IMG/VR virus record: IMGVR_UViG_3300045988_175656
Length of the DNA: 64,000 nucleotides
From: a virus
Reading direction: 5' to 3' (one strand)
This document shows, piece after piece, positions 1 to 31,863 of the stretch. The position numbers and the translations under genes are program-made. Numbering within the stretch: the stretch's first letter is position 1; each line of letters starts with the position of its first letter. A model generated the notes under the pieces. That model was not told where the DNA came from. It was given only the letters and a program-made list of their open reading frames with translations, and did not search any database.

Positions 1-1
1 T

Positions 2-1372
2 GAGTTAAAAACTATTTCTTGCACATTATCTGAAAATGATAAAAAAACATATAAAGATATTAAATCTAATTTAGAAAAACAATTTGGCTTCACTGAATAT
101 GGAATTTATGGCAAATGTAATGAAGGTATAGGGTGGAATATAGCTCAATATGCTAAAAATTGTGGTATAAATTCAACAATCATAGAAAGAATGTGCAAAA
201 AAAACGTATGGAAATCAATTGAAGGTTTTTTATTTAAAGGGAAAAAAATTCATTATAAGAAATATAATGAATTTAATTCATTATATGGAACTAATGTTTC
301 TAAAGTATTAACAGGAATAAGTTTTGATGGTAAATGTGTATATTGGAGAAAATCAGGTAAAAAAAATAATAAAGGAGTATATTCTGATATTGTTTTACCA
401 ATCAATAAAACTGTAAACGAATATGAAGCTCAGGCATTGTCCAATGAAATTGCATATGTTGGTATTATTAGAAAAATAATTAGAGGGAAAAATAAATTTT
501 ATGCTCAAATTACATTAAAAGGCTGTTTGCCAAGTAAAATAGATAAATCAACTAATTTATTTCGTAAACCTGCTATTGGACGAGTTGGGCTTGATATTGG
601 AACATCAACACTTGCAATAGCTTCTAATTCAAAAGTTGAATTATTAGAACTTGCTGACAAAGCACAACCTAATGAAAACAAAATTAAAATCATACAACGA
701 AAAATAGATAGGAGTATTCGTAAAAATAACCCTAATAAATTTAATGAAAATGGTACTATTAATATTTCAAATAAAAATAAATGGGTTATTTCTAAAAATT
801 GTCAGAAATTAAAATTGAAGCTAAAAGAAATGTACAGAAAATTATCAGTAATACGAAAATTGCAACATGAAGAATTAGCTAATCATATAATTTCATTAGG
901 AAACGAATGTTATATTGAGACTATGAGATGGAAAGGCTTACAAAAAAGGTCACAAAATGATGATATTAATAATAATGGAAAACCAAAAAAGAAAAAACGC
1001 TTTGGAAAAAGTATTAGTAATAGAGCACCATCACAATTAACAACTATTTTATCTAACAAATTGAACAATTATGGTTACAAATTATATCTAATAGATACAA
1101 CAAAATGTAGAGCTAGTCAATATAATCATATAACAAAAGAGTATAATAAAAAATCTTTAAATGAAAGATGGAATATTATGCCAAATGGTGATAAAATTCA
1201 AAGAGATTTATATTCAGCTTTTTTAATCCAAAATATTAATGATACATTGGATGGCTTTAATGAAAAATTATTAAATGATAATTATGATAACTTTAAAGTT
1301 ATGCATAATAAAGAGATTGAAAGATTAAGATTAATACCAAAGAAAAAATTATCGTCAATGGGAATTAAATAA
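2..1372 (+). CDS. TnpB/Cas12-family RuvC nuclease, candidate compact type V-like CRISPR effector (N-terminus cut by window edge)
   Basis: The frame is open from nt 2, with no stop before the track ATG at 191. RuvC-I GLDIGTSTLAIAS, RuvC-II CYIETMRWKGLQKR and RuvC-III QRDLYSAFLIQNI occur in the TnpB/Cas12 order. A TnpB-like FKGKK...VLPI...FYAQITLKG segment lies upstream. The usual CxxC..CxxC zinc finger between RuvC-II and -III is missing (one Cys only). A CRISPR array starts 244 nt downstream on the same strand. Confidence 0.75.
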   Translation, partial: ELKTISCTLSENDKKTYKDIKSNLEKQFGFTEYGIYGKCNEGIGWNIAQYAKNCGINSTIIERMCKKNVWKSIEGFLFKGKKIHYKKYNEFNSLYGTNVSKVLTGISFDGKCVYWRKSGKKNNKGVYSDIVLPINKTVNEYEAQALSNEIAYVGIIRKIIRGKNKFYAQITLKGCLPSKIDKSTNLFRKPAIGRVGLDIGTSTLAIASNSKVELLELADKAQPNENKIKIIQRKIDRSIRKNNPNKFNENGTINISNKNKWVISKNCQKLKLKLKEMYRKLSVIRKLQHEELANHIISLGNECYIETMRWKGLQKRSQNDDINNNGKPKKKKRFGKSISNRAPSQLTTILSNKLNNYGYKLYLIDTTKCRASQYNHITKEYNKKSLNERWNIMPNGDKIQRDLYSAFLIQNINDTLDGFNEKLLNDNYDNFKVMHNKEIERLRLIPKKKLSSMGIK

Positions 1373-1387
1373 TTTTAACTATAATAA

Positions 1388-1419
1388 TTTTGAAATTTAA
1401 AAAATAAGTTGTATATTTG
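1388..1419 (+). promoter_or_regulatory. Bacteroidota-type promoter (-33 TTTG, -7 TATATTTG) facing the CRISPR array
   Basis: TTTG at 1388-1391 and TATATTTG at 1412-1419, 20 nt apart. This is the same TATATTTGCA box seen before many genes in the window. Confidence 0.6.
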
Positions 1420-1615
1420 CAATGTAATAAAAAACAAGATTTGTTATCTTGGTCATCGTTAATGAGAACATTGGTTTTCTTGATGACGAATTTATTAAAT
1501 CGAATTAAGATTAGTTTTATTGAACTATGTGTGTCAATTTAGAAAATTTTATATTAGATTTAATATATACGATTATATCATAAATAATTGGTTATTAGCT
1601 ATTTGTTGAAGATGT

Positions 1616-2242
1616 GCTGTTTATGATATATAAATATATTGTATAAACAGGTTCGGTAATGATAACATCATCATCAAATGTGCTGTTTATGATATATAAA
1701 TATATTGTATAAACAGGAATATGGTATAGCAGGTGTGTTATTTGCCACTGTTTATGATATATAAATATATTGTATAAACAGGAGCAACGATTTTCAACGC
1801 AAAGGGCGCACGGCTGTTTATGATATATAAATATATTGTATAAACAGGATAACGTTCTTTAGTCTTATCTCCATAAGAGCTGTTTATGACATATAAATAT
1901 ATTGTATAAACAGGCAAGTATCGTTTATGGTTCTTGTAGCTATTGCTGTTTATGATATATAAATATATTGTATAAACAGGAAGTCAGTTTGTATGTTGTT
2001 CTTCCTCTCTGCTATTTATGACATATAAATGTATTGTATAAACAGGAGAAAAGGTATCTGGAGCGAAAAAGAATACGTTGTTTATGATATATAAAATATA
2101 TTGTATAAAACAAGCAAGAAATGTAGTGTGATTGATTTTTTTCTGTTGTTTATGATATATAAAATATATTGTATAAACAAGAATAGTGATGAACGCAGCC
2201 ACACTTGCTGTTTATGATATATGAGTTTATTATATAAACAGA
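1616..2242 (+). CRISPR. CRISPR array, 10 repeats and 9 spacers
   Basis: 36-nt repeat GCTGTTTATGATATATAAATATATTGTATAAACAGG, starting at 1616, 1682, 1747, 1813, 1879, 1945, 2011, 2077, 2145 and 2207. Repeats 1-6 are (near-)identical, repeat 7 has 3 substitutions, and repeats 8-10 are progressively degenerate with 1-2 nt insertions. The 9 spacers are unique, with lengths 30, 29, 30, 30, 30, 30, 30, 30 and 25 nt. Strand is inferred from the upstream promoter and from degeneracy at the 3' end. Confidence 0.93.
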
Positions 2243-2263
2243 GAATTAATCAGATATTTATTT

Positions 2264-3268
2264 ATGCAAAATAACTATTTATGTTATATAAATAACATAA
2301 CAATGGATATTTTCAAGAAAAAAGAAATAATAGTTGCAAATATAAAACGCTTTAATGCTAATAACATTAACCCAAATGATGTTATATTATGCAACACTGA
2401 TGAAGAGTTATTAAAATTAATTCTTCGCCAATCACCTAATTATTGGTTCAACAATTATGTTTTAACGTTAGAACAATTTGTTGATTTCTTCTCCGATTTA
2501 TTTGAAAAATATAATATTTTTACAACAGGAGAACATCATTTGTATGGAAGCCATAAAGGTTACGCATTTGGGGATGCAATATTATATGTCTATAACAATT
2601 ATGAATTGTATGCTTATCAAAAAGCAACTGTATATGCCTATACACAATCTCATATATACACTCATGACTTTACTAAAGCTGAAGCTCATAATTTAGCTTG
2701 TGTTGATATGTTTGATGCAAATTGTCACACTGAGTATTTTGATGAATCATGTGGCTATATTCATAATGGAGAAGCTATATCAAATGATAAATCAAATATA
2801 GTTTTAATTGAAGGCACTTTAACTTCTCATAATTATTCGCATATTAAGACTTTACCTGGTGGCTATAAAAATGTAACTGCAATGGATAATTGTACTCTTG
2901 AATTACATGGTTCTCCTTGTGTTGATTGCTATAATCATTGCCAAGTGAAAGCATATGATATGTCAGAAGTAACTTGTCATAATAATGTTTGTGTTGAATC
3001 ATATAATAAATCACAAATCATATTAAATGATTTATCTTCATGTGTTGCACATGATACTTCAATAATCCATATATGTGCAGCAAAATGTGTTAAACTAATG
3101 GATTTATCTATTGGTTATAATTATCATGATATTGCAATTCAAATGGATGTATCAGGAACATCTTATTTATGTGATTTAACTGATACATTTACACAAGTAC
3201 AAAATAATGGTACTATTAAATGGGAACAGTCAGGAAAGATATTCTCAAATCAAAGAAATTTAAATTAA
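2264..3268 (+). CDS. hypothetical Cys/His-rich protein with degenerate ~8-residue repeats (beta-solenoid-like)
   Basis: Track ORF starting 22 nt after the last CRISPR repeat (alternative ATG at 2303). It contains a recurring x-[YH]-[DN]-x-[SC]-x-[VI]-x pattern: VYAYTQSH, IYTHDFTK, YFDESCGY, VKAYDMSE, VTCHNNVC, VESYNKSQ. Confidence 0.6.
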   Translation: MQNNYLCYINNITMDIFKKKEIIVANIKRFNANNINPNDVILCNTDEELLKLILRQSPNYWFNNYVLTLEQFVDFFSDLFEKYNIFTTGEHHLYGSHKGYAFGDAILYVYNNYELYAYQKATVYAYTQSHIYTHDFTKAEAHNLACVDMFDANCHTEYFDESCGYIHNGEAISNDKSNIVLIEGTLTSHNYSHIKTLPGGYKNVTAMDNCTLELHGSPCVDCYNHCQVKAYDMSEVTCHNNVCVESYNKSQIILNDLSSCVAHDTSIIHICAAKCVKLMDLSIGYNYHDIAIQMDVSGTSYLCDLTDTFTQVQNNGTIKWEQSGKIFSNQRNLN

Positions 3269-3290
3269 CCATTTTATTTTAACCATATTT

Positions 3291-3320
3291 AACGAGACTT
3301 CTTTTGAGGTCTCGTTTTTT
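3291..3320 (+). terminator. rho-independent terminator (AACGAGAC/GTCTCGTT stem plus T-run), cassette copy 1
   Basis: 8-bp stem at 3291-3298 and 3309-3316, followed by T6. The loop carries the TTTG used as the -33 box of the next promoter. Confidence 0.75.
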
Positions 3321-3333
3321 GTTTGTACATTTG
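3303..3333 (+). promoter_or_regulatory. Bacteroidota-type promoter
   Basis: TTTG at 3303-3306 and TACATTTG at 3326-3333, 19 nt apart, 24 nt before ATG 3357. Confidence 0.6.
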
Positions 3334-3356
3334 CATAAACAAAAAATAAATAGAAT

Positions 3357-3947
3357 ATGAATAATTGGAAATATGTTAATCAGTTTTACAAAATAAAAGA
3401 CTCAAAATTTGAAGAACCATCAATATGGGTTAAGGGGGATGAAAATGATGTAATGTCCATACTTAATAAATGTGAATACGAAAATTTTCAAAAGAGTTTG
3501 GGGAATGGAATATTTCAAGAAGAAGCATTTAGAGTAAAACCTAATTCAATGATGGAATTTATTGATTTACCAAAGGAAGAAATGGATAAAATCAATGAAG
3601 AGTTTGCTCGCCCATTAGAAAGAATGACAGAAAAACGTTTTATTGAATGTGCATTGTATGTTTTAAATATTAATCCATATTTAGGTTCTTCTACATGTTT
3701 AGGATGGGAAGAATATAACGATTATACTAAAAATCCTAATTGGATGGGTGGAGATTATATTCTACCTGACAATAATAAATATCATATTTGTTTACACAAA
3801 GGAACTATGAGAATATACCCAGGTGAAGGAGACCCATTCTGTACTTGGATAACCAAAGAACCATTAATTGAATTTAAAATTAATTTGAATGAATGGGCTG
3901 AAAGAGTGACTAATAATGAAAGCACAATTAAAATAACACAATTATGA
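3357..3947 (+). CDS. hypothetical protein
   Basis: Track ORF and first gene after a terminator/promoter cassette. No motif recognised. Confidence 0.65.
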   Translation: MNNWKYVNQFYKIKDSKFEEPSIWVKGDENDVMSILNKCEYENFQKSLGNGIFQEEAFRVKPNSMMEFIDLPKEEMDKINEEFARPLERMTEKRFIECALYVLNINPYLGSSTCLGWEEYNDYTKNPNWMGGDYILPDNNKYHICLHKGTMRIYPGEGDPFCTWITKEPLIEFKINLNEWAERVTNNESTIKITQL

Positions 3948-4759
3948 GCAAAAGTTTAGAAGATGTATTAAACTATATGATTGTTGAGAAACCATATCCA
4001 TCTCAAATACAAAAAATATTTGATAATGGTATAATTCAAGAAATATCTGAAAGGAATGGTTTTTATATTATGCTTTTTAGTTTTCAACATAAAGGAAGTT
4101 TCATAATGAGCTATATGTCAACATCAAGAGACATATATTTAATGTGTGATGAATATATGAACGAAATTGCATATATTGGTGCTTTAATTGTTGATAGCAA
4201 ATATAAAATACATAGAGGTGTTTTGGAATCTTTTTTAAGAGATAGTAATGGTAACTATAAAATGAACACCACACAGCTTTTAACTAAAAGTGATGGTTTA
4301 AAACTTTCACATTTATTTAAAGATAAATATTTTAGTTCAATGATATTACCAATTGTTGTCACAGATATTTCAACTGCTTGGCGTGATTCAATAACAAACT
4401 ATAATTATGGTTATCCTCGTGGATATAATACTAAACCTGAATATGATGACTATGGTAATTATTATGGAGTTATAAAAGACATTTATACATTTATAAGTAG
4501 ACATAATTTTACTAGTGTTGAAAGCATTGAAAGAAATGTTAAATTTGGAATAGATAAACAAACAATTTTAACTAAATTAAATTGTGCATCTATTATTGGA
4601 AAATCGGTTGAAAAAGCTGGTAATAAAATTGGTAAATCTATTGAAGTTGGATGTGAGAATATTGCAAGAAGCAATTTTATGATTGGTTCATCAATTCAAA
4701 AAGCAGGTACTAGAATAGCAAATGGTGTAAATGGTTGTACATATGCTTATGGAGATTAA
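3944..4759 (+). CDS. hypothetical protein
   Basis: Track ORF with an ATGA start/stop overlap with the upstream gene. No motif recognised. Confidence 0.65.
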   Translation: MSKSLEDVLNYMIVEKPYPSQIQKIFDNGIIQEISERNGFYIMLFSFQHKGSFIMSYMSTSRDIYLMCDEYMNEIAYIGALIVDSKYKIHRGVLESFLRDSNGNYKMNTTQLLTKSDGLKLSHLFKDKYFSSMILPIVVTDISTAWRDSITNYNYGYPRGYNTKPEYDDYGNYYGVIKDIYTFISRHNFTSVESIERNVKFGIDKQTILTKLNCASIIGKSVEKAGNKIGKSIEVGCENIARSNFMIGSSIQKAGTRIANGVNGCTYAYGD

Positions 4760-4789
4760 TAAATATAGAAAATTATAAAATAATTAAAA

Positions 4790-5374
4790 ATGGACAATAA
4801 TCAAATATATCATTTTGTTAAAGTGAAAACTAAAGGTGATGAAGATTCAAAAGGAACTTGGTTACTTGAAGCTGATTCATTAAGAGTAATTAATGAACAC
4901 TTTAAAAAATATGTTGGAGCCGAAATTAAACAAGGTATGAAAGAAATCATATCTCGTATTAATGGTAAAGTAGGTCATTATACAAATAGTTTTGCTAGTA
5001 CTGTTGATACAATTATGCAATTTGGTGAAAAACCTTATTTAGTTGTTGCTACTGAATTGGAAAATGAAATGCTGCAAACCAGAATAAAAGGTTATCTTAA
5101 TGATAGAAAACAATATTTATCCGATTCTTTATCTGTTATTATCATGTCTCCACACTTAGAGATTATTGATGAAGAATATAAAGATGAAATGGTATATCCT
5201 CATGAAAGTAAACCATCATTAAATGATGTAAAATATATGACATGGTATGGTGGAAAACATTGGTATGCTAAAATAGGAAAAATTGATATTGTTGACAGAG
5301 ATAACAATCAAAAATGGAACACTCGCAAAGAAGCTGAAGAAGCAGCTAAATGGTATATTGAAACATTCTATTAA
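4790..5374 (+). CDS. hypothetical protein
   Basis: Track ORF in the co-oriented packed train. No motif recognised. Confidence 0.65.
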   Translation: MDNNQIYHFVKVKTKGDEDSKGTWLLEADSLRVINEHFKKYVGAEIKQGMKEIISRINGKVGHYTNSFASTVDTIMQFGEKPYLVVATELENEMLQTRIKGYLNDRKQYLSDSLSVIIMSPHLEIIDEEYKDEMVYPHESKPSLNDVKYMTWYGGKHWYAKIGKIDIVDRDNNQKWNTRKEAEEAAKWYIETFY

Positions 5375-5376
5375 TT

Positions 5377-5742
5377 ATGAAAAAACATATAACTTATTGC
5401 AATCAATGTGATAATTGTAAGGTATATCCTGACCCAGACTTTGATGATTGGTTTTGTCATGATGATATAAAAATTGTTTGTAATGTTAACAACATGACAA
5501 TGGCAAGTGCATGTCGTCCTTATGAAATAAATTCATTTAAAGTGCCTAAAAATTGTCCATTAATGAATAAAATGGAAGAAAAGCCTATTAAAAATACTAA
5601 TGATTTGATTAGAAAATTTATGAAGGATAATAATCTTGAAGAGATGCATATGGGTGCATTTATTCTTGAAGAATACAATAGTGTATGTATCAACAAAAAT
5701 GATATAGATAAAATAAATAATATAATTAACTTTAATAAATAA
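5377..5742 (+). CDS. hypothetical Cys-rich protein
   Basis: Track ORF. The N-terminal part has CxxCxxC plus further Cys/His, a possible zinc-binding site. Confidence 0.6.
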   Translation: MKKHITYCNQCDNCKVYPDPDFDDWFCHDDIKIVCNVNNMTMASACRPYEINSFKVPKNCPLMNKMEEKPIKNTNDLIRKFMKDNNLEEMHMGAFILEEYNSVCINKNDIDKINNIINFNK

Positions 5743-5745
5743 ATT

Positions 5746-6324
5746 ATGTCAGAAATTAAAATTACAACAGAAAAAGTAAGAGAAGCCTATAAGAAAGGTA
5801 ATGATTGTGTAAAAGATGTATTGCAAAATCTTTTTGGAGAAGAAGTATGTGCTCCGAAAAATGTAATGGATAGAGTAAAAACATTTGAAGATGCTTGTAT
5901 AGAAACAAATACAGACATCAAAGCATTTAATGAGATGACAAAGAATTTAGATGAACATGTGGTAACTTACATGAAATTAAGTATTATTGTTAAAGCTCTT
6001 AATGAAGATGATAAATTTCCGTACTTTACAAAAGAAGAATGGAGATATTACCCTTATTTTTGGTTATATACTAAAGATGAATATGAAAAAATGAACACCA
6101 AAGACAGAGAGAAAGTCTCTCGTGTCCTCTTTCGCTCGTATAACGATGCGCATTCGAATGGCGGTGTTGCGTATGCGGATGCGGTGGACGGTGCTTCGTG
6201 TGCGAGTAGCTATGTGGGTGCTCGGCTTGTTTTCCGAACAAGAGAACTTGCATTATATGCAGGGAAACAATTTATTGATTTATATGTAAAACATATATTT
6301 GATGCTGACATAATAAAAGATTAA
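5746..6324 (+). CDS. hypothetical protein carrying a GC-rich, A-poor codon island near its 3' end
   Basis: Track ORF. Codon usage switches abruptly at about 6114-6236 to GCG/GGC/GTG/TCG codons. The C-terminus reads VGARLVFRTRELALYAGKQF. Confidence 0.65.
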   Translation: MSEIKITTEKVREAYKKGNDCVKDVLQNLFGEEVCAPKNVMDRVKTFEDACIETNTDIKAFNEMTKNLDEHVVTYMKLSIIVKALNEDDKFPYFTKEEWRYYPYFWLYTKDEYEKMNTKDREKVSRVLFRSYNDAHSNGGVAYADAVDGASCASSYVGARLVFRTRELALYAGKQFIDLYVKHIFDADIIKD

Positions 6325-6333
6325 AATCATATT

Positions 6334-6624
6334 ATGAAGAAAGAAAAAAGAAAATGGGTCAAAGATGAAAAAAGGTTAATTAAACTGTTATATAGAACAG
6401 GTATTATTGATAGATATACATCAATTGATTCATTATATTGGGATTATTCTGGGAAGTTTCCCAGAATAATTTATACTAAAAATGATTATTTAGATAATAT
6501 TAATGATTATATTATTGTTGATATTGTTAACAGGGAGGAATATGGAAACATTTCACGAAAATCATTGATTAAACTTCTTAGTAAACTTCCAATTAAAAAC
6601 AACAAAACAATAAAAAACGTTTAA
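6334..6624 (+). CDS. hypothetical protein
   Basis: Track ORF in the packed train. Confidence 0.55.
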   Translation: MKKEKRKWVKDEKRLIKLLYRTGIIDRYTSIDSLYWDYSGKFPRIIYTKNDYLDNINDYIIVDIVNREEYGNISRKSLIKLLSKLPIKNNKTIKNV

Positions 6625-6626
6625 TA

Positions 6627-6725
6627 ATGATTGAAACTGTAATTTTAATTGCATTAGCAATTGTGTATTCCATAGGATGTATAATGGTTCGCATTTATAA
6701 ATGGAATAAAAGACGAAAAAATTAA
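6627..6725 (+). CDS. possible 32-aa single-pass membrane peptide
   Basis: ATG 6627 lies 3 nt after the previous stop. It translates as MIETVILIALAIVYSIGCIMVRIYKWNKRRKN (hydrophobic core, basic tail) and ends just before the terminator. It is below the track size cutoff. Confidence 0.35.
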   Translation: MIETVILIALAIVYSIGCIMVRIYKWNKRRKN

Positions 6726-6733
6726 GAATAATT

Positions 6734-6763
6734 AACGAGACTTATTTGCAAGTCTCGTTTTTT
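6734..6763 (+). terminator. rho-independent terminator, cassette copy 2
   Basis: AACGAGAC at 6734-6741 pairs with GTCTCGTT at 6752-6759, followed by a T-run. Confidence 0.75.
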
Positions 6764-6776
6764 GTTTCTATATTTG
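6745..6776 (+). promoter_or_regulatory. Bacteroidota-type promoter
   Basis: TTTG at 6745-6748 (inside the terminator loop) and TATATTTG at 6769-6776, 20 nt apart. Confidence 0.6.
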
Positions 6777-6801
6777 CATTATAATAAATTATAGAAATAG
6801 T

Positions 6802-7212
6802 ATGGAAAATTTTACATTAAAAGAATTAAAACAATGTGTTGAATATTGTGGTGGAGATAAAAAGAAAGTGAAAGAATGGATAAAAAATTGTAATCCATTA
6901 CCAACAACATTAAAAGAATTATTATCATATAATAAACTAAAAACTGTTGATTATGGTGATTTTCCCAATGATATTCAAGAAGATGTTACTCATTGTATAT
7001 ATACATTCGAAAAAGGATATACTACTAGTTTAAATAGGGTATTTGAGCGATTCTGTGATTATTTTTTAGATGATGAAGATGAAAATGTGTGGGATGATGA
7101 AAAAAAAGAATATAATTATGATGCGTTGGAAAAAGCATTTAACAAATATATTCCAGGTTTTGTAAAATTTCTAATTGATAATCAAGTAGGAGCAATTAGA
7201 AATTATTGGTAA
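6802..7212 (+). CDS. hypothetical protein
   Basis: Track ORF following a cassette. Confidence 0.65.
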   Translation: MENFTLKELKQCVEYCGGDKKKVKEWIKNCNPLPTTLKELLSYNKLKTVDYGDFPNDIQEDVTHCIYTFEKGYTTSLNRVFERFCDYFLDDEDENVWDDEKKEYNYDALEKAFNKYIPGFVKFLIDNQVGAIRNYW

Positions 7213-7225
7213 TATAATTGGAAAA

Positions 7226-7324
7226 ATGAAAATCATTGATTATATATTACTCAGTCTAATTTGGCTAATTATATTGTTTTTATTTGGTTGTGTTTATTAT
7301 GTAATGTTTATTATTAGATATTAG
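7226..7324 (+). CDS. possible 32-aa membrane peptide
   Basis: Translates as MKIIDYILLSLIWLIILFLFGCVYYVMFIIRY and fills the gap between two genes. It is below the track cutoff. Confidence 0.35.
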   Translation: MKIIDYILLSLIWLIILFLFGCVYYVMFIIRY

Positions 7325-7327
7325 AAT

Positions 7328-7651
7328 ATGGAAATTGAAGTAAAAGAAACTGTAACAAGGAAAATGAAAGTTTATCCTTGTATTAAATGTGGAAGTGAAA
7401 ATATTAAAATCTATAATTGTGGTTATAGTAGTTTTAATTGTGCTGGTGGCGAATGTAAAAGATGTGGTCATACTGTTGAAACTAATGCTAACTGGGATGT
7501 TACTGAATCAAGTTTAATTAAAGCTTGGAACAAAGAAAATGACCCATCAGTACTTATAGAACGTTTGGATAAAGAAAGACTTAAAATAATTGATGAAATC
7601 AAACGTCTTAAAAAATTAAAGAATAAAATGTCTAAATTAACCAAAGATTAA
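7328..7651 (+). CDS. zinc-ribbon protein, Lar-family-like (restriction alleviation-like)
   Basis: YPCIKCGSENI...CKRCGH followed by LIKAWNKEN, resembling the Lar-family CxxC...CxxC...A..WN signature. The tail is basic and coiled-coil-like. Confidence 0.45.
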   Translation: MEIEVKETVTRKMKVYPCIKCGSENIKIYNCGYSSFNCAGGECKRCGHTVETNANWDVTESSLIKAWNKENDPSVLIERLDKERLKIIDEIKRLKKLKNKMSKLTKD

Positions 7652-7655
7652 AAAT

Positions 7656-8060
7656 ATGATAGATATAGATTTTTATAAAGTAATACATGGAGAACAGATA
7701 TTGTTTAATAAATGTAAAGGAAAAACAATAAAAGATACCTATATTGGTAATGAAATTTTGTGCATTATATTTGATGATAATAGTTTTGTATATTTAGAAG
7801 AATACGATGATTATGGAAATATATCCAGATTTGACGATGTAAATATCAATTATTCTAATCTCAAAGATTATGTTGGGTATAATAAAGATGGTGAGTTATA
7901 TCATAGTGATGTTATGTCATTTATGATAAAAAATGAACTATTTGTAGAAAATGAATTAAAAGAATATTTGTACCCTCTTTTTGAAGAAGAAAAAAAGAAA
8001 ATAATAGAACGAGAACTTGCTGAGTATGAAAGGATTAAAAATAAGTATAATTTAAATTAA
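7656..8060 (+). CDS. hypothetical protein
   Basis: Track ORF. Confidence 0.6.
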   Translation: MIDIDFYKVIHGEQILFNKCKGKTIKDTYIGNEILCIIFDDNSFVYLEEYDDYGNISRFDDVNINYSNLKDYVGYNKDGELYHSDVMSFMIKNELFVENELKEYLYPLFEEEKKKIIERELAEYERIKNKYNLN

Positions 8061-8071
8061 TTAGTGTAGTT

Positions 8072-8278
8072 ATGAGAAAATTAATTGGAACTATTGTAGT
8101 AATATTATTGATTGTTGTAGGTTTTACAGGTGTTAATTTGAAAGTGAATGGAACTGCATTTAAAATTCCACCTTACATTAAAAATGTTATGAATGATAAA
8201 AAGAAAATTGATGAAGCAAAGAAAGTTTTTAATGAAGCAAAAGATAAATTAACTGATGAAGTTAAAGATGAAAAATAA
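8072..8278 (+). CDS. small membrane-anchored protein
   Basis: N-terminal hydrophobic helix LIGTIVVILLIVVGFTGV followed by a charged tail. Confidence 0.5.
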   Translation: MRKLIGTIVVILLIVVGFTGVNLKVNGTAFKIPPYIKNVMNDKKKIDEAKKVFNEAKDKLTDEVKDEK

Positions 8279-8281
8279 TCA

Positions 8282-8354
8282 TTTTAATGCGTTTTAAAAG
8301 ACTTTCGATTTAATATGAATAATCTATTGAATTTATAAATAAAACGCATTAAAA
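8282..8354. repeat. 14-bp perfect inverted repeat separated by 45 nt
   Basis: TTTTAATGCGTTTT at 8282-8295 and AAAACGCATTAAAA at 8341-8354, directly after the stop of the 8072-8278 gene. Confidence 0.8.
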
Positions 8355-8639
8355 CTAAAACAAATAGCATTATGAGCTATATTATTAATTATTTAGACAC
8401 TGATATAGGATTTACTAAAAATATCTTAAAGAAAGAAGATATTGGAAAACTGATTTTTATTATAAAAATTTAACATATATAATTTGTATCTGATAAATCA
8501 AAACATATTAATATCATTATAAGATATATTATAATATTAATTATATATTTTATTATAAAATTATATATAATAAGGTCCAATATATTAATACCAGTTATTA
8601 TTTAATTTGCAAATATAAATTATTAAAATATATTAAATT

Positions 8640-8981
8640 ATGGGAAATAAAACGTTAGATGACAAAGTAGCTGATTTAAGGAATAAGCTCACTCCATTAT
8701 ATAACTTGGCTGCTATAATGAATGAAATTGTGATAAACAAAGGTGAAGTCGAATTTAATGATGTGATTAAAAATTGTATTAATGATGCTAATCATTCTCT
8801 TCCAATAATTAGAAAAATTGTTGACTCATTGTTAGTGAATGATTATCCAATGTCAAAAGAACGTTTAAAAAGCATCTCACAAGAGTTTGCAAATAATGCT
8901 TGTATGCCTTATTGCTGGGAAGATGTTTATAACAGACTAATTGATAGAAGTGCATTACCTTTTAAAATTAAAGTAGAATGA
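8640..8981 (+). CDS. hypothetical protein
   Basis: Track ORF after the 360-nt AT-rich gap. Confidence 0.6.
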   Translation: MGNKTLDDKVADLRNKLTPLYNLAAIMNEIVINKGEVEFNDVIKNCINDANHSLPIIRKIVDSLLVNDYPMSKERLKSISQEFANNACMPYCWEDVYNRLIDRSALPFKIKVE

Positions 8982-9226
8982 ACGATTTTATAGGAACTAT
9001 GGTATCAAGAACAATATATGCTTATGTATCAGAAATTGTACTTGGTCCTGGATATGATGAAAAAGAAAATAATTGGTGGGTGATTGTTGATGTTATTTGG
9101 AATGATAATGGTTGCCCAATGCAAGAAAATTGTAAAATTTTAAAGTTTGATACTGAACATGAAGCAAAACAAATTAAAATTGGTACATGTGTTGATTCAG
9201 AAAAAAAGTTTTCATGGATAGATTAA
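8978..9226 (+). CDS. hypothetical protein
   Basis: Track ORF with a 4-nt overlap with the upstream gene. Confidence 0.55.
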   Translation: MNDFIGTMVSRTIYAYVSEIVLGPGYDEKENNWWVIVDVIWNDNGCPMQENCKILKFDTEHEAKQIKIGTCVDSEKKFSWID

Positions 9227-9414
9227 ATAAAAAAGATGTTTGGCATGATAATTGTCAACCAAATGTAGGGCAGTTAGTAATAGTAGTTGATGAAAATAAT
9301 ACAATATATGATTTTGGTTATTTTCATTTTAATGATTATGTTGATTATAAACATGGTTTTAGATGGGCATATATGAAAGATTTAGTAGATATAACAAATG
9401 GAAAAGAAAAATAG
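9214..9414 (+). CDS. hypothetical protein
   Basis: Track ORF with short overlaps on both sides. Confidence 0.5.
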   Translation: MDRLNKKDVWHDNCQPNVGQLVIVVDENNTIYDFGYFHFNDYVDYKHGFRWAYMKDLVDITNGKEK

Positions 9415-10015
9415 AACATCATCAGCAATTGTATCTTATAGATATGGTAGTATTGTATATGGTACTGATAATGAAAATTCAGATGAAGATATGATTTCAA
9501 TCATTTCTGACAATTTTGAGGATATGACTGAAAATGAAGGTCAAGGAAGAGTTGGAGATTATGACATTACTTTTTATAAGGAAAGTTATTTTATTGAAAA
9601 AATCAAAAATCATTCAATTGATGCTTTGGAATGTATTTTTCTCCCAAAAGATATGATTATTGGAGATAATAAATATCTTCAATATTTTCAACTTGATTTG
9701 CCGACGTTAAGAAATTCAATATCAGCTATATGCAATAATTCTTATGCTAAAGCAAAGAAGAAGTTAACAGTAAAAAAAGACTATGATTTCTATAAAGCAA
9801 TGAAATCATTATTTCATTCAATCAGGATTTTTGAATTTGGAAAACAAATAGCCATATTTGGTAAAATAACTAATTATCAGGCTTGTAATCACATATGGTA
9901 CATGATTAGCAAAGAAACATCTACTGATTGGGAATATTATCATAAAAAATATAAACCAATTTGGAATGAATATCATAGTGCATTTGTAAAAGTAGCAAGG
10001 AAGAAGCTTACTTAA
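9398..10015 (+). CDS. Pol-beta-fold nucleotidyltransferase-like protein (RlaP-like)
   Basis: N-terminal YGSIVYGTDNENSDEDMISI fits the GS-x-yG...SD-x-D motif of minimal nucleotidyltransferases. It is shorter than the second copy at 39732. Confidence 0.45.
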   Translation: MEKKNRTSSAIVSYRYGSIVYGTDNENSDEDMISIISDNFEDMTENEGQGRVGDYDITFYKESYFIEKIKNHSIDALECIFLPKDMIIGDNKYLQYFQLDLPTLRNSISAICNNSYAKAKKKLTVKKDYDFYKAMKSLFHSIRIFEFGKQIAIFGKITNYQACNHIWYMISKETSTDWEYYHKKYKPIWNEYHSAFVKVARKKLT

Positions 10016-10035
10016 CAATTTTTAACTATAATATT

Positions 10036-10066
10036 TTTGGGATTTAAAAAATAAATTGTATGTTTG
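10036..10066 (+). promoter_or_regulatory. Bacteroidota-type promoter
   Basis: TTTG at 10036-10039 and TATGTTTG at 10059-10066, 19 nt apart, before ATG 10083. Confidence 0.55.
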
Positions 10067-10082
10067 CACTAAAATATAAAAA

Positions 10083-10334
10083 ATGAAAGGCGTAATTAAT
10101 TTTTTTAATATCATTATAGTACCATTTTCCATTCTTATGGGATTTGTGTTTGAATTTAAATATATGTGGCTAATAATAGCCTTATATTCAAGTCTTATGC
10201 TTGTTAATATCACAATTAATACAATAGTTACTTCTATTATTGAAAAGAAATATGAAGAAAGTTATTCAGCTTTCTGGAGAACATTATTTGTGATTATATC
10301 AGCAATTAGTTGGACATTTGTAATTTATTCTTAA
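10083..10334 (+). CDS. small multi-pass membrane protein
   Basis: Three hydrophobic segments in 83 aa. Confidence 0.55.
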   Translation: MKGVINFFNIIIVPFSILMGFVFEFKYMWLIIALYSSLMLVNITINTIVTSIIEKKYEESYSAFWRTLFVIISAISWTFVIYS

Positions 10335-10336
10335 TT

Positions 10337-10510
10337 ATGTATATAAAACGTATAAATATAAATGGTTTTCCAAACCCAACAAATAAAATAGAGAAATATT
10401 ATTTTTTTAAAAATAAAACTCAGGAAGAAATTGAGCTTTTAGAAACAGTAGGTAAAATTATTACCAAATTTATTAAACTTTATCATATAAAAAACAAAAA
10501 ACATGAGTAA
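10337..10510 (+). CDS. hypothetical protein
   Basis: Internal ATG of track ORF 10310-10510, chosen because it starts right after the previous stop. Confidence 0.4.
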   Translation: MYIKRININGFPNPTNKIEKYYFFKNKTQEEIELLETVGKIITKFIKLYHIKNKKHE

Positions 10511-10841
10511 TATTATATTAGATTTCTTTCACAACATTACAAAAAGGAGTAATCCAAGGTTAAATGCAAAAGATGCGTATTTGAAAGCAAAATATCAACG
10601 TATTCAAACTGAAGAAGAAAGATTAAATGAATTTAAATTTAATCTTGATACTTTAATCTCAATCAAGTGTGATTCATGTACATGTTGTTGTGTGGTAGAA
10701 CTTGAAGAAGATTTGTCCAAGCATTTGGATGATATTATTAAAGAATATCGTGAATTAGGTTATACAGTTATTAATTTAAAAGATGAAGTAGAAGATATTG
10801 ATAACAATTATCTTTTTCTTTGTTGGGATAAAAAATATTAA
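10503..10841 (+). CDS. hypothetical protein
   Basis: Track ORF. Confidence 0.55.
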   Translation: MSNIILDFFHNITKRSNPRLNAKDAYLKAKYQRIQTEEERLNEFKFNLDTLISIKCDSCTCCCVVELEEDLSKHLDDIIKEYRELGYTVINLKDEVEDIDNNYLFLCWDKKY

Positions 10842-10845
10842 TATA

Positions 10846-11130
10846 ATGACTACACAAGATATTAGCAATATTTTAAATTCTATTAATGCTTCAATTCCAC
10901 CTAAACCAAAATATGCGTTAATAGCATCCGAATTTATAGTTGATTTAATAGTGAAAAATAGTGATTCTGCGTTTAATTTTGAACATGACTTCTGGATATA
11001 TAAAACACCTTATCATAACATTAATATTCGTATAGAACATACACTTCAAGGTTATGCAGCTATTTTATTTAAAGATGGAAAAGTAAAGGTCACTATTGAC
11101 AAAGAAGGTAAAGGGAAAATTTTTGCATAA
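10846..11130 (+). CDS. hypothetical protein
   Basis: Internal ATG (MTTQDIS...) of track ORF 10798-11130, which avoids overlap with the upstream gene. Confidence 0.55.
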   Translation: MTTQDISNILNSINASIPPKPKYALIASEFIVDLIVKNSDSAFNFEHDFWIYKTPYHNINIRIEHTLQGYAAILFKDGKVKVTIDKEGKGKIFA

Positions 11131-11162
11131 AATATAAATTAATATTATTTAACTTTTTGGTA

Positions 11163-11194
11163 TTTGCAATTAATCACTTTAAGTTGTATATTTG
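11163..11194 (+). promoter_or_regulatory. Bacteroidota-type promoter
   Basis: TTTG at 11163-11166 and TATATTTG at 11187-11194, 20 nt apart. Confidence 0.6.
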
Positions 11195-11224
11195 CATAAA
11201 ATAAGAGAATAAATTAAAGTGATT

Positions 11225-11470
11225 ATGTCAGAACAAATGAAAAATAATACAGTTGTTTTTATATTTGAAGGTAAACTGGATGATTTGTTAACAGATAATG
11301 GAAATATTAAATCAAGTAGATTGATTAAATTTGGGAATGAAACTGAATGTGGAAGTGAACAAAATTGGGATATTCAACTAACGTCTTATAATAATATTGA
11401 ACCTAAACATGAGAAGTTTGATAGTTTATTAGGGAAAAAAGTTAGAATTGTTGTTGAAACCATAGAATAA
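11225..11470 (+). CDS. hypothetical protein
   Basis: The track ORF begins at GTG 11219. The first ATG is at 11225. Confidence 0.5.
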   Translation: MSEQMKNNTVVFIFEGKLDDLLTDNGNIKSSRLIKFGNETECGSEQNWDIQLTSYNNIEPKHEKFDSLLGKKVRIVVETIE

Positions 11471-11486
11471 AAATACAAAGATTGTT

Positions 11487-12197
11487 ATGAATATGGATAG
11501 AACTTGGATGAAAGAAAAAATCACAATGAGTTATGAAGATTTATTTAATTATGTGATTCAATCAAGGGTTCTTGGGGATATGTTAAACGAAAATAAACTA
11601 GCTGAAGTGGGATTCGAAATCCCACATTTAGTTTATATACAAAAAAATAATAAATCACCTTATATGGAAACTGAAAAAAAATCTAAAGAAATATTATATA
11701 CTAATGGAGATGCTACTTCTCCAAAAGGAGAAGGTAAAAAATATATAGTACACGTTTGTAATGATATTGGGGGATGGGGACGAGGATTTGTACTTGCACT
11801 ATCAAATAAATGGGATTCTCCAGAAAAGAGTTATCGTGAATGGAATCGCAATGGATTTTATGAATTTCCTGATTCAACTAAATGTAAATTTGAATTAGGA
11901 AATATTCAAGTAGTTCCTGTTGAAGAAAATTTATCAGTTATTAATATGATTGGACAACATGGTTGTTATCCAACAATAGTTGATGGGGAAAAAATACAGC
12001 CAATTCGTTATAATGCTCTAAAAGAGTGTTTAATGAAAGTGGCAAAACTTGCTAAATCAACAAATGCTAGTGTTCATATGCCTATGATTGGAGCTGGACT
12101 TGCAGGTGGTGATTGGTCTATTATTGAAGGAATAATTAATAAAACTTTGATATTCCTTGGTGTTGATACAACTGTTTATATATTTGATGAAAAATGA
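11487..12197 (+). CDS. macro-domain protein (ADP-ribose binding/hydrolase fold)
   Basis: HVCNDIGGWGRGFVLALSNKW ... INMIGQHG ... VHMPMIGAGLAGGDW matches the conserved blocks of stand-alone macro domains. Confidence 0.6.
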   Translation: MNMDRTWMKEKITMSYEDLFNYVIQSRVLGDMLNENKLAEVGFEIPHLVYIQKNNKSPYMETEKKSKEILYTNGDATSPKGEGKKYIVHVCNDIGGWGRGFVLALSNKWDSPEKSYREWNRNGFYEFPDSTKCKFELGNIQVVPVEENLSVINMIGQHGCYPTIVDGEKIQPIRYNALKECLMKVAKLAKSTNASVHMPMIGAGLAGGDWSIIEGIINKTLIFLGVDTTVYIFDEK

Positions 12198-20016: not shown

Positions 20017-20047
20017 AACGAGAATTCTTTGGGATTCTCGTTTTTTG
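20017..20047 (+). terminator. rho-independent terminator, cassette copy 4
   Basis: AACGAGAAT at 20017-20025 pairs with ATTCTCGTT at 20034-20042, followed by T6. Confidence 0.75.
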
Positions 20048-20059
20048 TTTATATATTTG
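20028..20059 (+). promoter_or_regulatory. Bacteroidota-type promoter
   Basis: TTTG at 20028-20031 (in the terminator loop) and TATATTTG at 20052-20059, 20 nt apart. Confidence 0.6.
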
Positions 20060-30747: not shown

Positions 30748-31863
30748 ATGAGTAGAAAAAAGACATTAAATGAATTTATTGATAAGGCAAAAGAGGTACA
30801 TGGTAATAAATATGATTACTCAAAAGTGAATTATATAAACTCACAAGAAAAAGTATGTATTGTTTGCCATGAACATGGTGAATTTTGGCAGCTTCCATTT
30901 AAACATTTAAAAGGTCAAGGATGCCCAAAATGCTTTAGAAATAATCTTAGTGATATATTAAAATTTTCAATAGATGAATTTATCAAAAAAGCAAAAGAAA
31001 AACATGGATATAAATATGATTATTCAAAAGTAGAATATATAAATAATAAGACAAAGGTTTGTATCATATGTCCTGAACATGGAGAATTTTGGCAAACACC
31101 ACATAATCATTTAAAAGGTTATGGGTGTTCTAAATGCAGTGGAAATTATTTACATACATTAAATGAATTTATTGAAAAATCCAAAGAAATACATGGTGAT
31201 AAATATGGCTACTCTAAAGTAGATTATATTAATGCACTAACAAAAGTATGCATTGTTTGCTCTGAACATGGTGACTTTTGGCAAACACCACATAATCATT
31301 TAAAAGGTCAAGGATGTCCAAAATGCTTTTACACTAAAAATAGTGAAGAAAAGAAGCTAACTTTAGAAATTTTTATTGAAAAAGCAAAAGAGATACATGG
31401 TGATAAATATGATTATTCAAAAGTAAATTATAAAGGATTTCATGATAAAGTATGTATTCTTTGTAAAGAACATGGTGAATTTTGGCAAACACCTGCACAT
31501 CATTTAAGTGGACAAGGATGTAGAAAATGCAATGAAAGTAAATTAGAAAGAATAACAAGAATATTTTTAAAAAAACATAATATAATATCTATTCAAGAAA
31601 AGACTTTTGATTGGTTGATAAAAGACAAAAATCTAAAATTGGATTTTTATTTACCTGAATATAATGTAGCAATTGAATGCCAAGGAATACAACATTTTAA
31701 GCCAATTAATTATTTTGGTGGCTTAAAAGGATTTGAATATATTAAAAAATGTGATTTAATAAAAAAACAAAAATGTTATGAAAATGGTATTAAATTATTT
31801 TATGTCAATTATTATGATGACATAGAACAAAATTTATTAGAAATTATAAATAAATTAAAATAA
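30748..31863 (+). CDS. endonuclease with four tandem zinc-ribbon repeats and a Vsr/DUF559-like C-terminal nuclease domain
   Basis: Four ~63-aa repeats (HG.KYDYSKV.YIN...KVC..C.EHGEFWQ.P..HLKGQGCPKC), followed by LDFYLPEYNVAIECQGIQHF. Confidence 0.6.
   Translation: MSRKKTLNEFIDKAKEVHGNKYDYSKVNYINSQEKVCIVCHEHGEFWQLPFKHLKGQGCPKCFRNNLSDILKFSIDEFIKKAKEKHGYKYDYSKVEYINNKTKVCIICPEHGEFWQTPHNHLKGYGCSKCSGNYLHTLNEFIEKSKEIHGDKYGYSKVDYINALTKVCIVCSEHGDFWQTPHNHLKGQGCPKCFYTKNSEEKKLTLEIFIEKAKEIHGDKYDYSKVNYKGFHDKVCILCKEHGEFWQTPAHHLSGQGCRKCNESKLERITRIFLKKHNIISIQEKTFDWLIKDKNLKLDFYLPEYNVAIECQGIQHFKPINYFGGLKGFEYIKKCDLIKKQKCYENGIKLFYVNYYDDIEQNLLEIINKLK

Follow-up and report, generated by a model that had tools for sequence, protein, structure and literature searches.

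The 64,000-nucleotide (nt) stretch of viral DNA analysed here, IMG/VR record IMGVR_UViG_3300045988_175656 (in its whole length referred to as the window), begins within the gene of a compact RuvC nuclease that is followed on the same strand by a promoter, a structured leader and a CRISPR array. We consider this locus likely to be a miniature type V system of the V-U/TranC kind that derives from a TnpB nuclease and is carried by a large phage probably infecting Bacteroidales; its use in conflicts between phages is the best reading of the data. A first-pass annotation, made from the sequence of the window, had suggested, as one of two alternatives, that a TnpB has captured a CRISPR array in place of its ω-RNA. 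The intermediate character of the system stands, with transposon-borne kin at ~45% identity and with linkage to an array in orthologues down to 55% identity. The idea of a replacement does not: comparison of the sequences indicates that the 5′ scaffold of the ω-RNA persists as the leader of the array, while the terminal hairpin and the guide have been swapped for an anti-repeat, a repeat and a spacer.

The open reading frame (ORF) of the effector is read in frame 2, is open at the left edge and comprises 456 codons up to a stop at 1370-1372. The first 96 codons lie to the left of the window, as deduced from the orthologue P0001, and since this protein is 94% identical and has 552 amino acids (aa), the earlier guess of a TnpB/Cas12f-sized protein was right. 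The motifs RuvC-I (GLDIGTSTLAIAS, nt 587-625), RuvC-II (IETMRWKGLQKR, nt 914-949) and RuvC-III (QRDLYSAFLIQNI, nt 1199-1237), the segments FKGKK (nt 233-247) and FYAQITLKG (nt 497-523), the stop codon and the array on the same strand were all found where the first-pass annotation had placed them. Conservation of the RuvC residues, on which that annotation had made its interpretation depend, was borne out in an alignment of 14 proteins of the effector's family, called A1 in Table 1. A single Cys (residue 369 of the visible part) is present between RuvC-II and RuvC-III, so that the CxxC...CxxC zinc finger of the TnpB superfamily is indeed missing, as previously noticed. According to the alignment this loss is common to all family members including the transposon-borne ones. 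It also shows that the 552-aa clade is about 65 residues longer than the transposon copies, mostly because of N-terminal REC-like helices, with about 45 of the extra residues in the N-terminal helical region and the others in two short insertions. An AlphaFold2 model of P0001 (mean pLDDT 82) retrieved ISFba1 TnpB, Cas12m2, CnCas12f1, Cas12p, AsCas12f, ISDra2 TnpB and LaTranC as its best Foldseek matches in the PDB, with E values of 1e-8 to 1e-10 at merely 7-15% identity. Searches of the PDB with the single sequence and with a profile gave nothing significant, ISDra2 TnpB being marginal at E ~0.2. A split RuvC domain, the D...E...D residues at TnpB spacing and the WED/REC/RuvC fold place the protein within the TnpB superfamily.

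The promoter sequence that follows the effector stop, TTTG-N19-TATATTTG, is of the Bacteroidota type, in agreement with the host-type promoter claimed at this place by the first-pass annotation. The window contains 14 copies of the motif TTTG-N18-21-TAnnTTTG where 4.8 are expected, and none of 100 shuffles reached 14. The promoter was also detected by a sigma-70 scan, an equivalent one is found ahead of leader copy C in the related locus L003, and it presumably drives transcription of the leader and the array. From the promoter through the whole array no terminator-like site was detected; the nearest one is located at 3291-3316, past the next ORF. The array consists of repeats of 36-38 nt and spacers of 25-30 nt, and its leader end can be assigned to the gene side because the last three repeats are degenerate. 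The next ORF (2264-3268) matched no Pfam, NCBIfam or PADLOC family, which upholds the earlier statement that it has no likeness to Cas1, Cas2 or Cas4; none of these proteins was found in a PADLOC scan of 100 window ORFs, nor did Pfam annotation of relatives reveal cas1, cas2 or cas4 within 10 kb upstream of the gene. A comparison of Rfam with positions 1-3600 yielded no family. As a separate observation, a cassette with the sequence ...TCTCGTTTTTTGTTTnTAnATTTG recurs at 3291-3333, 6745-6776 and 20028-20059; in this cassette the T-run after a terminator-like hairpin overlaps a Bacteroidota-type promoter, and the hairpin was detected by the scan solely at 3291-3316.

Table 1. Features of the effector, leader and array at the left end of the window
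Feature	Position	Strand	Evidence
Effector gene, TnpB-derived RuvC nuclease, C-terminal 456 codons and stop	2-1372	+	translation, orthologues, profiles, AlphaFold2 fold
RuvC-I catalytic Asp, D294 in full-length numbering (GLDIGT)	593-595	+	invariant column in alignment A1
RuvC-II catalytic Glu, E402 (IETM)	917-919	+	invariant column in alignment A1
RuvC-III catalytic Asp, D498 (QRDLYSAF)	1205-1207	+	at least 90% in alignment A1; sole exception P0001 (Asn)
Bacteroidota-type promoter (TTTG-N19-TAtaTTTG), before leader and array	1389-1419	+	motif enrichment, sigma-70 scan
Leader, apparently a diverged ω-RNA scaffold, putative trans-activating CRISPR RNA (tracrRNA)	1428-1615	+	covariance model, leader alignment, fold
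Leader hairpin H1 (CAAGAU-uugu-u-AUCUUG)	1435-1451	+	4 of 7 pairs change on both sides among leaders
Leader hairpin H2 (outer stem, GUUAAU, inner hairpin), ω-RNA model positions 23-58	1452-1487	+	cmsearch; 6 of 12 pairs compensatory
Leader helix 4, long imperfect stem with GAUUAGU	1505-1553	+	18 pairs, 93% of cells paired
Predicted anti-repeat, complementary to repeat positions 2-31	1565-1587	+	repeat search; RNAduplex -16.7 kcal/mol
CRISPR array, 10 repeats (consensus GCTGTTTATGATATATAAATATATTGTATAAACAGG) and 9 spacers	1616-2242	+	repeat detection
Spacer S1, leader-proximal	1652-1681	+	30/30 in five IMG/VR viral contigs; TTAC 5′ (TTAT in one)
Spacer S3	1783-1812	+	30/30 in eight metagenome contigs, integrated element; TTAC 5′

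A search of 5.8 billion proteins returned about 3,600 homologues of the window protein. Five clusters are close to it, namely P0001 (94%, 552 aa), P0002 (86%, 552 aa), P0003 (55%, 557 aa), P0005 (56%, 553 aa) and P0004, a fragment of 280 aa. The remaining homologues among the matches listed have 457-520 aa and 42-48% identity, those nearest to the clade having 476-520 aa and 43-48% identity, and many are encoded on contigs of ~2.1 kb, a pattern typical of repeated insertion sequences (IS). Among GenBank phages, tblastn picked out Clostridium phage c-st, C. difficile phiCD211-like phages and Geobacillus virus E3, where the matching genes bear the annotation IS200/IS605 OrfB or 'ISCbt1'; in c-st and E3 an IS200-type OrfA is located directly upstream. 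P0008 (510 aa) adjoins a serine recombinase as in IS607. When one genome per species was scanned, 71 loci of the family were found, nearly all in Bacillota apart from a few Fusobacteriaceae and one Acholeplasmataceae, and several of the genomes contain multiple copies. Annotation of the homologues and the multicopy genomes together imply that the window protein belongs to a large, active TnpB family, and at ~45% identity the ISCbt1-type TnpBs of IS200/IS605/IS607 elements appear by sequence to be its nearest relatives outside its own clade. The NCBIfam model guided_TnpB (NF040570) recognizes the window part with E=1.8e-15 and 57 bits, below the curated cut-off of 100 bits, which P0001 (37 bits) and P0005 (54 bits) do not reach either. 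Since the transposon-borne relatives P0118 (84 bits) and P0008 (78 bits) also miss it, the whole ISCbt1-type family can be regarded as a divergent branch. The window protein further matches PADLOC Cas12u4 (3e-10), PADLOC Cas12f (4.5e-8 over ~80 residues) and Pfam OrfB_IS605 (0.025). With PADLOC and NCBIfam models alike P0118 and P0008 score equal to or above the array-linked proteins, so the Cas12u4 and Cas12f matches carry no information on the subtype.

The first-pass annotation had conceded that its hypothesis would fail if the full-length protein nested inside transposon-borne TnpB clades with intact IS ends. Nesting there is: all 100 bootstraps of a neighbour-joining tree recover the 552-aa phage proteins as a monophyletic clade, whose sister group consists of the IS607-linked P0008, P0014 and P0032. 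Signs of a transposon were not seen around the genes of the relatives, neither a Pfam match to TnpA or Resolvase in the 10 kb upstream nor left-end (LE) or right-end (RE) motifs by a strict regular expression, a weak test that recovered just two positive controls. The features of an active IS (an adjacent TnpA, LE/RE hairpins, TTAC|LE and RE...TCAG junctions, multiple copies) were thus not found in these relatives, the window itself comprising the downstream side only. Relatives of the gene have their own promoter, which is placed after a terminator. IMG/VR scans for relatives of P0001 and P0005 produced none, and megablast of window positions 1-12000 against GenBank phages gave no match.

The order of gene, leader and array is conserved among orthologues that are 94% to 55% identical (the window, L001, L010 and L003/L004/L006). 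The contigs of P0001 and P0002 terminate shortly ahead of the array or at it, that of L001 within its array. On the 115-kb scaffold L010 an array accompanies an effector with 86% identity, and in L003, L004 and L006, which encode P0005, arrays with the related repeat GTTGTTAATAACATTAATTTGAAATGTATATACAAG lie downstream of the gene. L003 (11663-13400) and L004 (11663-13560) both have three leader-array modules in a row behind one effector gene, every module having a leader copy of its own; the repeat of the middle array differs in its 5′ half (GATTGGTATG... in L003, GATAGGTATG... in L004). A gene followed by a scaffold of ~200-240 nt and an array recurs with P0007 (517 aa, 43%) on the unclassified metagenome contigs L012 (1766-2560) and L013, and in the bacterial genomes L041 (5470-5930), L044 (5458-5870) and L079 (5515-6280), which are Eubacteriales and Ruminiclostridium metagenome-assembled genomes and, in the case of L079, Anaeromassilibacillus senegalensis; L058 is perhaps a further case. 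Linkage to an array across diverged orthologues, a criterion for type V systems of the V-U/TranC kind, is thus found here over a range of 55-94% identity and again in P0007, L041, L044 and L079. The bacterial proteins linked to arrays also form one clade in 100 of 100 bootstraps, separate from that of the phages. Monophyly of the array-linked proteins as a whole was recovered in 0 of 100, which speaks against a single origin, so that, within the limits of a neighbour-joining tree, CRISPR linkage arose or was lost several times within one TnpB family.

This conservation bears directly on the possibility that a mobile TnpB has come to lie fortuitously beside the unrelated CRISPR array of another system. 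The nesting of the protein inside a transposon family and PADLOC and NCBIfam scores no different from those of transposon-borne members would agree with such an accident. It would have to account, however, for a gene order that is kept across the orthologues and reappears in the bacterial loci, for the missing TnpA and IS-end motifs, for the lack of any other cas genes in the PADLOC scan, and for a leader derived from the ω-RNA and a protospacer flank identical to the target motif of the family, both described below. We therefore regard a chance association as extremely improbable.

In the transposon copies the stop codon is followed by a conserved ω-RNA of ~170 nt with a terminal hairpin and then ...GGGAGTNTCAG at the right end of the element. 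The 5′ 130 positions of 25 ω-RNAs, all transposon-borne, served to construct a covariance model, R1, with which both strands of 203 kb of array-linked loci were searched. All nine matches with E up to 10 fall between the effector gene and the array on the gene strand. They cover the full length of the model in L041 (E 2.8e-8), L079 (3.7e-8), L012 and L013 (2.2e-6) and L003, L004 and L006 (0.04), and model positions 23-58 in the window (1452-1487) and L001 (0.015). With the filters off, the window match scores 24 bits (E=0.005) and is the best on both strands of the 64 kb, the runner-up scoring 13 bits. Eight leaders, from the window, L001 and the leader copies of L003, L004 and L006, were aligned to each other. 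Their consensus comprises 37 pairs, with 95% of cells paired versus 39-51% when the partners were slid, and 13 pairs changed on both sides versus 0-2 in the slid controls; the covariation score was reached by none of 500 shuffles. The covariation together with the R1 matches indicates that the leader is a structured RNA under selection and homologous to the RNA of the ancestral nuclease. Helix 4 of the leader also shares its GAUUAGU motif with the ω-RNAs of the transposon copies. In the minimum free energy fold of leader, repeat 1 and spacer 1 (1428-1681; z = -2.7), H1, H2 and helix 4 are recovered, the anti-repeat pairs with repeat 1 and the spacer is located downstream at the 3′ end of the transcript. 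The predicted fold has the layout of an ω-RNA or an engineered single-guide RNA. We thus view the leader as a probable diverged ω-RNA scaffold, in which the anti-repeat is a predicted element.

An equivalently placed anti-repeat segment exists in L001, L003, L004 and L012. The most telling case is provided by the middle (B) arrays of L003 and L004, which have a divergent repeat 5′ half (GATTGGTA in L003, GATAGGTA in L004) and whose leaders end with ...TACCAATC, matching the 5′ half of their own repeat. The corresponding duplexes reach -21 to -23 kcal/mol with the own repeat but only -8 to -12 kcal/mol with an A-type repeat. These arrays are a natural covariation test of the tracr:repeat pairing. 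At their 3′ ends, the repeats of the bacterial array-linked clade (...CCAG) and of the window (...ACAGG) both recall the right end of the ω-RNA, ...TCAG.

Alternatively, the guide handle could be the hairpin of the repeat itself, as for Cas12a, Cas12j and Cas-lambda, in which case the leader would be only a promoter or adaptation leader. Repeats of the window, L001 and L003B do fold into hairpins of -8 to -10 kcal/mol, the layout of the repeat resembles the terminal ω-RNA hairpin plus ...CAG, and in the A-type arrays the specificity of the anti-repeat is weak. On the other hand, the A and C repeats of L003 barely fold (-2.5 kcal/mol) even though they are served by the same effector, and each of the L003 and L004 arrays comes with a separate leader whose anti-repeat fits it. 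The ω-RNA scaffold elements, which have been kept with compensatory changes, would be superfluous in a simple promoter or leader, and TnpB relatives require the scaffold for activity (ISDra2 TnpB; PMC10097598). A handle formed by the repeat hairpin thus appears unlikely to us, and a leader that acts as tracrRNA is the interpretation we retain.

A search with the spacers and the derivation of a protospacer-adjacent motif (PAM) from the target flanks, both recommended in the first-pass annotation, were fruitful for S1 and S3. The S1 target contigs are 21-30 kb long, with the protospacer in a 121-aa ORF among tail and tail-fibre-like genes; a gene flanking the target matches phrog_13589, and so does an ORF of the window. 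The S3 target contigs, several of them as large as a chromosome, include some of 0.5, 1.7 and 5 Mb. Here the target is a 101-aa ORF adjoining a serine invertase/integrase and small phage-like genes, in loci with ~30-36% GC, or 39-41% where more chromosomal flank is included, which looks like an integrated element. Its chromosomal neighbour is 65% identical to a protein of Mediterranea massiliensis (Bacteroidaceae). In the + orientation of the array TTAC precedes both protospacers, at a frequency of this tetranucleotide in the target loci of 0.004-0.007, and the 3′ flanks share nothing. Spacers that match foreign DNA with a consistent 5′ PAM, another criterion for V-U/TranC systems, are thus present, on two independent protospacers. 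The left junction of the transposon copies likewise reads TTAC|left end, as seen by blastn in six Cytobacillus copies and in several other genera with a full left end. In IS200/IS605 elements a conserved tetranucleotide serves both as insertion target and as target-adjacent motif (TAM) of TnpB, and IS608 also uses TTAC (PMC5934647, PMC8612924). The equivalence of the PAM and the ancestral TAM supports the assigned direction of transcription, a guide located 3′ of the repeat and a DNA-recognition surface retained from the ancestor. When S2, S3, S4, S5 and S9 were scanned for exact matches in IMG/VR, nothing was found. A blastn search with all nine spacers joined, the only one in which the remaining spacers were tested, found no match in GenBank phages or PLSDB plasmids; the two target regions likewise had no megablast match in phages and plasmids, and no spacer targets the window itself.

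Comparison of the arrays points to spacer turnover. L003, L004 and L006 encode an identical effector yet differ in their first spacer, with one extra spacer in array A of L003; the third (C) arrays of L003 and L004 contain mostly different spacers, and the window and L010 have no spacer in common. Such turnover without a local adaptation module suggests that spacers are acquired in trans by the host machinery. That spacers differ between strains and that the leader-proximal S1 matches its target perfectly can also be taken as an argument for current use. In addition, L096, L097, L099 and L100, which belong to the viral family that S1 targets, are matched by spacer 2 of L010 with a TTTC flank and 3-4 mismatches, those of the best match being at positions 1, 4 and 22. 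These might speculatively be escape variants.

Two of the orthologous loci carry changes in the effector. In L001 (10001-11659) P0001 has the sequence QRNLYSAF, with Asn in place of the RuvC-III Asp, and judging from this substitution the sister strain may possess a nuclease-dead or weakened form of the effector. In L010 (9706-11220) the effector is broken by an in-frame stop after 96 codons and by a deletion joining codon ~376 directly to a repeat, and several repeats have lost their central part, which could reflect decay or misassembly. One might hence propose that the system binds DNA without cutting it, for silencing as with Cas12m, Cas12c or TldR, or that it is decaying and non-functional. 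The D/E/D triad is nevertheless kept in the window copy, P0002, P0003 and P0005, and we attach very little probability to either proposal.

Several points weigh against the interpretation as a TnpB-derived type V system of a Bacteroidales phage. The IS relatives are found in Bacillota while the phage looks Bacteroidota-associated, which leaves a gap between hosts. The ω-RNA model is matched by the window over only 36 of its 130 positions, with a modest score of 24 bits. A-type anti-repeat duplexes are AU-rich and no stabler with the cognate than with a foreign repeat, and a tracr-independent handle is possible because the window repeat folds on itself with -9.4 kcal/mol. The PAM is based on two independent protospacers, targets having been found for two of the six spacers searched. 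The Asn of P0001 and the broken L010 gene mean that the system is not under uniform selection. Finally, cleavage by the nuclease, RNA processing, the tracr function and the route of spacer acquisition are all inferred from sequence.

We favour the following course of events. The leader would act as tracrRNA; in cis, leader, repeat 1 and spacer 1 would fold like an ω-RNA or a single-guide RNA, and in trans the anti-repeat would pair with the other repeats, a host RNase trimming the duplexes. Together with the scaffold and the CRISPR RNA (crRNA), the nuclease could then find TTAC-flanked protospacers, and its RuvC site would cut the DNA. This would destroy competing phages and mobile elements in a shared host, and new spacers would probably be acquired with host Cas1-Cas2 in trans.

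About 40-50 independent births of type V effectors from TnpB have been catalogued, V-U6 to V-U45 (PMC10691335, PMC12669027). For TranC (Jin et al., Cell 2025), the splitting of the ω/reRNA into tracrRNA and crRNA has been proposed as the driver of the transition (PMC13565253, bioRxiv 10.64898/2026.03.27.714800, bioRxiv 10.1101/2025.09.28.678669). CauTranC9, the Cas12p 'hacker', Cas12j and Cas-lambda are phage-borne examples. TranC and V-U6 to V-U45 (PMC10691335) resemble the window system in that an array lies downstream of a compact effector of TnpB type and adaptation genes are missing. They would also share with it the proposed origin of the guide from an ω/reRNA split into a tracr-like scaffold and a crRNA, and TranC effectors are further characterized by their use of reRNA-type as well as CRISPR-type guides. 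Additional points of agreement are a short PAM, an expansion of REC, phage-borne examples (CauTranC9), repeats of 32-38 nt and short arrays. LaTranC differs from the window protein in that it did not appear in the PDB sequence searches and is matched by Foldseek with 12% identity; its PAM is TTC, whereas TTAC is inferred here, and unlike LaTranC the window system descends from the zinc-finger-less ISCbt1-type family. The system may belong to one of the numbered TranC (1-24+) or V-U6 to V-U45 clades. A full-text literature search for the motifs of the family retrieved no paper.

The ISCbt1-type TnpBs are 43-48% identical to the effector from end to end, have its catalytic triad and lack the zinc finger as it does; a homologous 5′ RNA scaffold, the TTAC motif and a guide 3′ of the scaffold on the gene strand are shared as well. 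They differ in that they reside on Bacillota chromosomes, not in a Bacteroidota-type phage, and in that they have a terminal hairpin and a single guide where the window has an anti-repeat and a repeat-spacer array, together with the ~65 extra residues and no evidence for multiple copies. Cas12f (V-F) and Cas12n (V-N, formerly V-U4) resemble the window system in being miniature, with a TnpB-like fold and a long tracrRNA (in the window a putative one) between gene and array, and many of their loci also lack an adaptation module. The profile and structure comparison advised in the first-pass annotation retrieved a TnpB/Cas12f fold (CnCas12f1 8.7e-10, AsCas12f 3e-9, RdCas12n a weak 1.8e-3), and the Cas12f profile was matched at superfamily level only. 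Membership in Cas12f or Cas12n was rejected, since the PADLOC scores are weak (1e-7 to 1e-10) and are equalled or exceeded by those of the transposon-borne P0118, and since the zinc finger, which in Cas12f is part of the TNB domain, is absent. Cas12p (bioRxiv 10.1101/2025.01.20.633832) is similarly phage-encoded, has 500-700 aa, uses tracrRNA and crRNA and has been described as an early TnpB-to-Cas12 intermediate. It was discarded as well, its structures 9jfs and 9jg3 being found by fold only at 12-13% identity, with no PDB sequence match and with the PAM GTN instead of TTAC. The other alternative of the first-pass annotation was a clade such as Cas12j (CasPhi) or Cas-lambda, which are likewise phage-borne and combine a single RuvC effector with an array without cas1/cas2/cas4. 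These have larger effectors that process their own crRNA without a tracrRNA (PMC10734277, PMC12141684), in contrast to the conserved structured leader with a predicted anti-repeat found here. Both lie outside the 50 best Foldseek matches in the PDB, no PADLOC or NCBIfam model of either was matched, and the window protein is ~200 residues shorter, so that this assignment had to be abandoned.

What distinguishes the window system is its close kinship to active transposon copies, a leader that is detectable by a model of transposon ω-RNAs and a PAM identical to the TAM (TTAC). The presence of several leader-array modules per effector, with anti-repeat and repeat co-varying, and of at least three array-linked lineages in one TnpB family is equally distinctive. 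We propose only tentatively, and with more doubt than confidence, that it represents an uncatalogued and very recent TnpB-to-CRISPR transition in a phage, independent of the published TranC, V-U and Cas12 lineages. In such a transition the ω-RNA would still be readable as the leader, leader, repeat 1 and spacer 1 would form a natural single-guide RNA, the scaffold would serve in trans as well, the TAM would have been kept as PAM, linkage would have arisen at least three separate times and the array would be refreshed by host Cas1-Cas2.

The concept of TranC, V-U and phage-encoded mini-Cas12 systems has already been published, which makes the finding less surprising. Its value lies in offering a legible snapshot of a transposon nuclease becoming a CRISPR effector, at ~45% identity, with a recognisable ω-RNA leader and with the target motif as PAM. 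Since array-linked and transposon-borne members coexist in one TnpB family, the steps of the transition can be compared directly. Judged by its sequence, a nuclease of 552 aa with a 4-nt PAM and a scaffold of ~160-190 nt is also a candidate compact genome editor. In ecological terms, a gut phage would appear to turn a minimal CRISPR system on a rival phage and on an integrated element, with which it probably shares its Bacteroidales hosts.

The assignment to a phage, already made in the first-pass annotation, agrees with the PHROG matches, with tail-like genes and with the contexts of relatives. Among the 100 window ORFs, 62 PHROG families were matched, including HNH and homing endonucleases, RNA ligases, an RNA 2′-phosphotransferase, a CCA-adding enzyme and a methyltransferase, and two matches to 'virion structural protein'. 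In relatives a Peptidase_S74 tail-spike domain is encoded, and very small ORFs follow each other in long series. Neither a capsid nor a terminase gene could be recognized in the window, and a tRNA scan of it found no tRNA. The identification of the carrier as a large Bacteroidales phage has good support but falls short of proof. A 1001-aa tail-like protein (53698-56700, - strand) with 84-nt internal DNA repeats (54304-54738) and DUF285 and PKD domains is followed by two BACON-domain proteins (56785-57810 and 57918-58862, both + strand). These are probably host-recognition proteins, and as such point to a Bacteroidales host. In L003 (1-9900 and 13490-18340) and likewise in L004, the effector locus is embedded in runs of at least 25 ORFs of ~80-100 aa on the same strand with no Pfam match, which look like a tandemly expanded small-protein family.

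Other features of the window are more remote from the effector. An HNH/homing-endonuclease gene (phrog_559, E=2e-86) contains a tandem duplication of ~393 nt with a 189-nt sub-repeat (30763-31493). Two RNA-repair genes encode an RlaP-type nucleotidyltransferase (39732-41030, + strand) and a CCA-adding enzyme with an HD domain (47230-48603, - strand), and the RNA ligase and RNA 2′-phosphotransferase matches lie elsewhere in the window; RNA-repair gene sets are typical of phages that counter tRNA-cleaving defences. An R2K-type ATP-grasp gene (51938-52708, - strand) is located ~50 kb from the effector on the opposite strand. In L001 (300-1082, + strand), L002 and L010 such a gene shares the strand of the effector and precedes it by ~9-10 kb. 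The difference in placement suggests either different gene orders or two paralogues in these phages.

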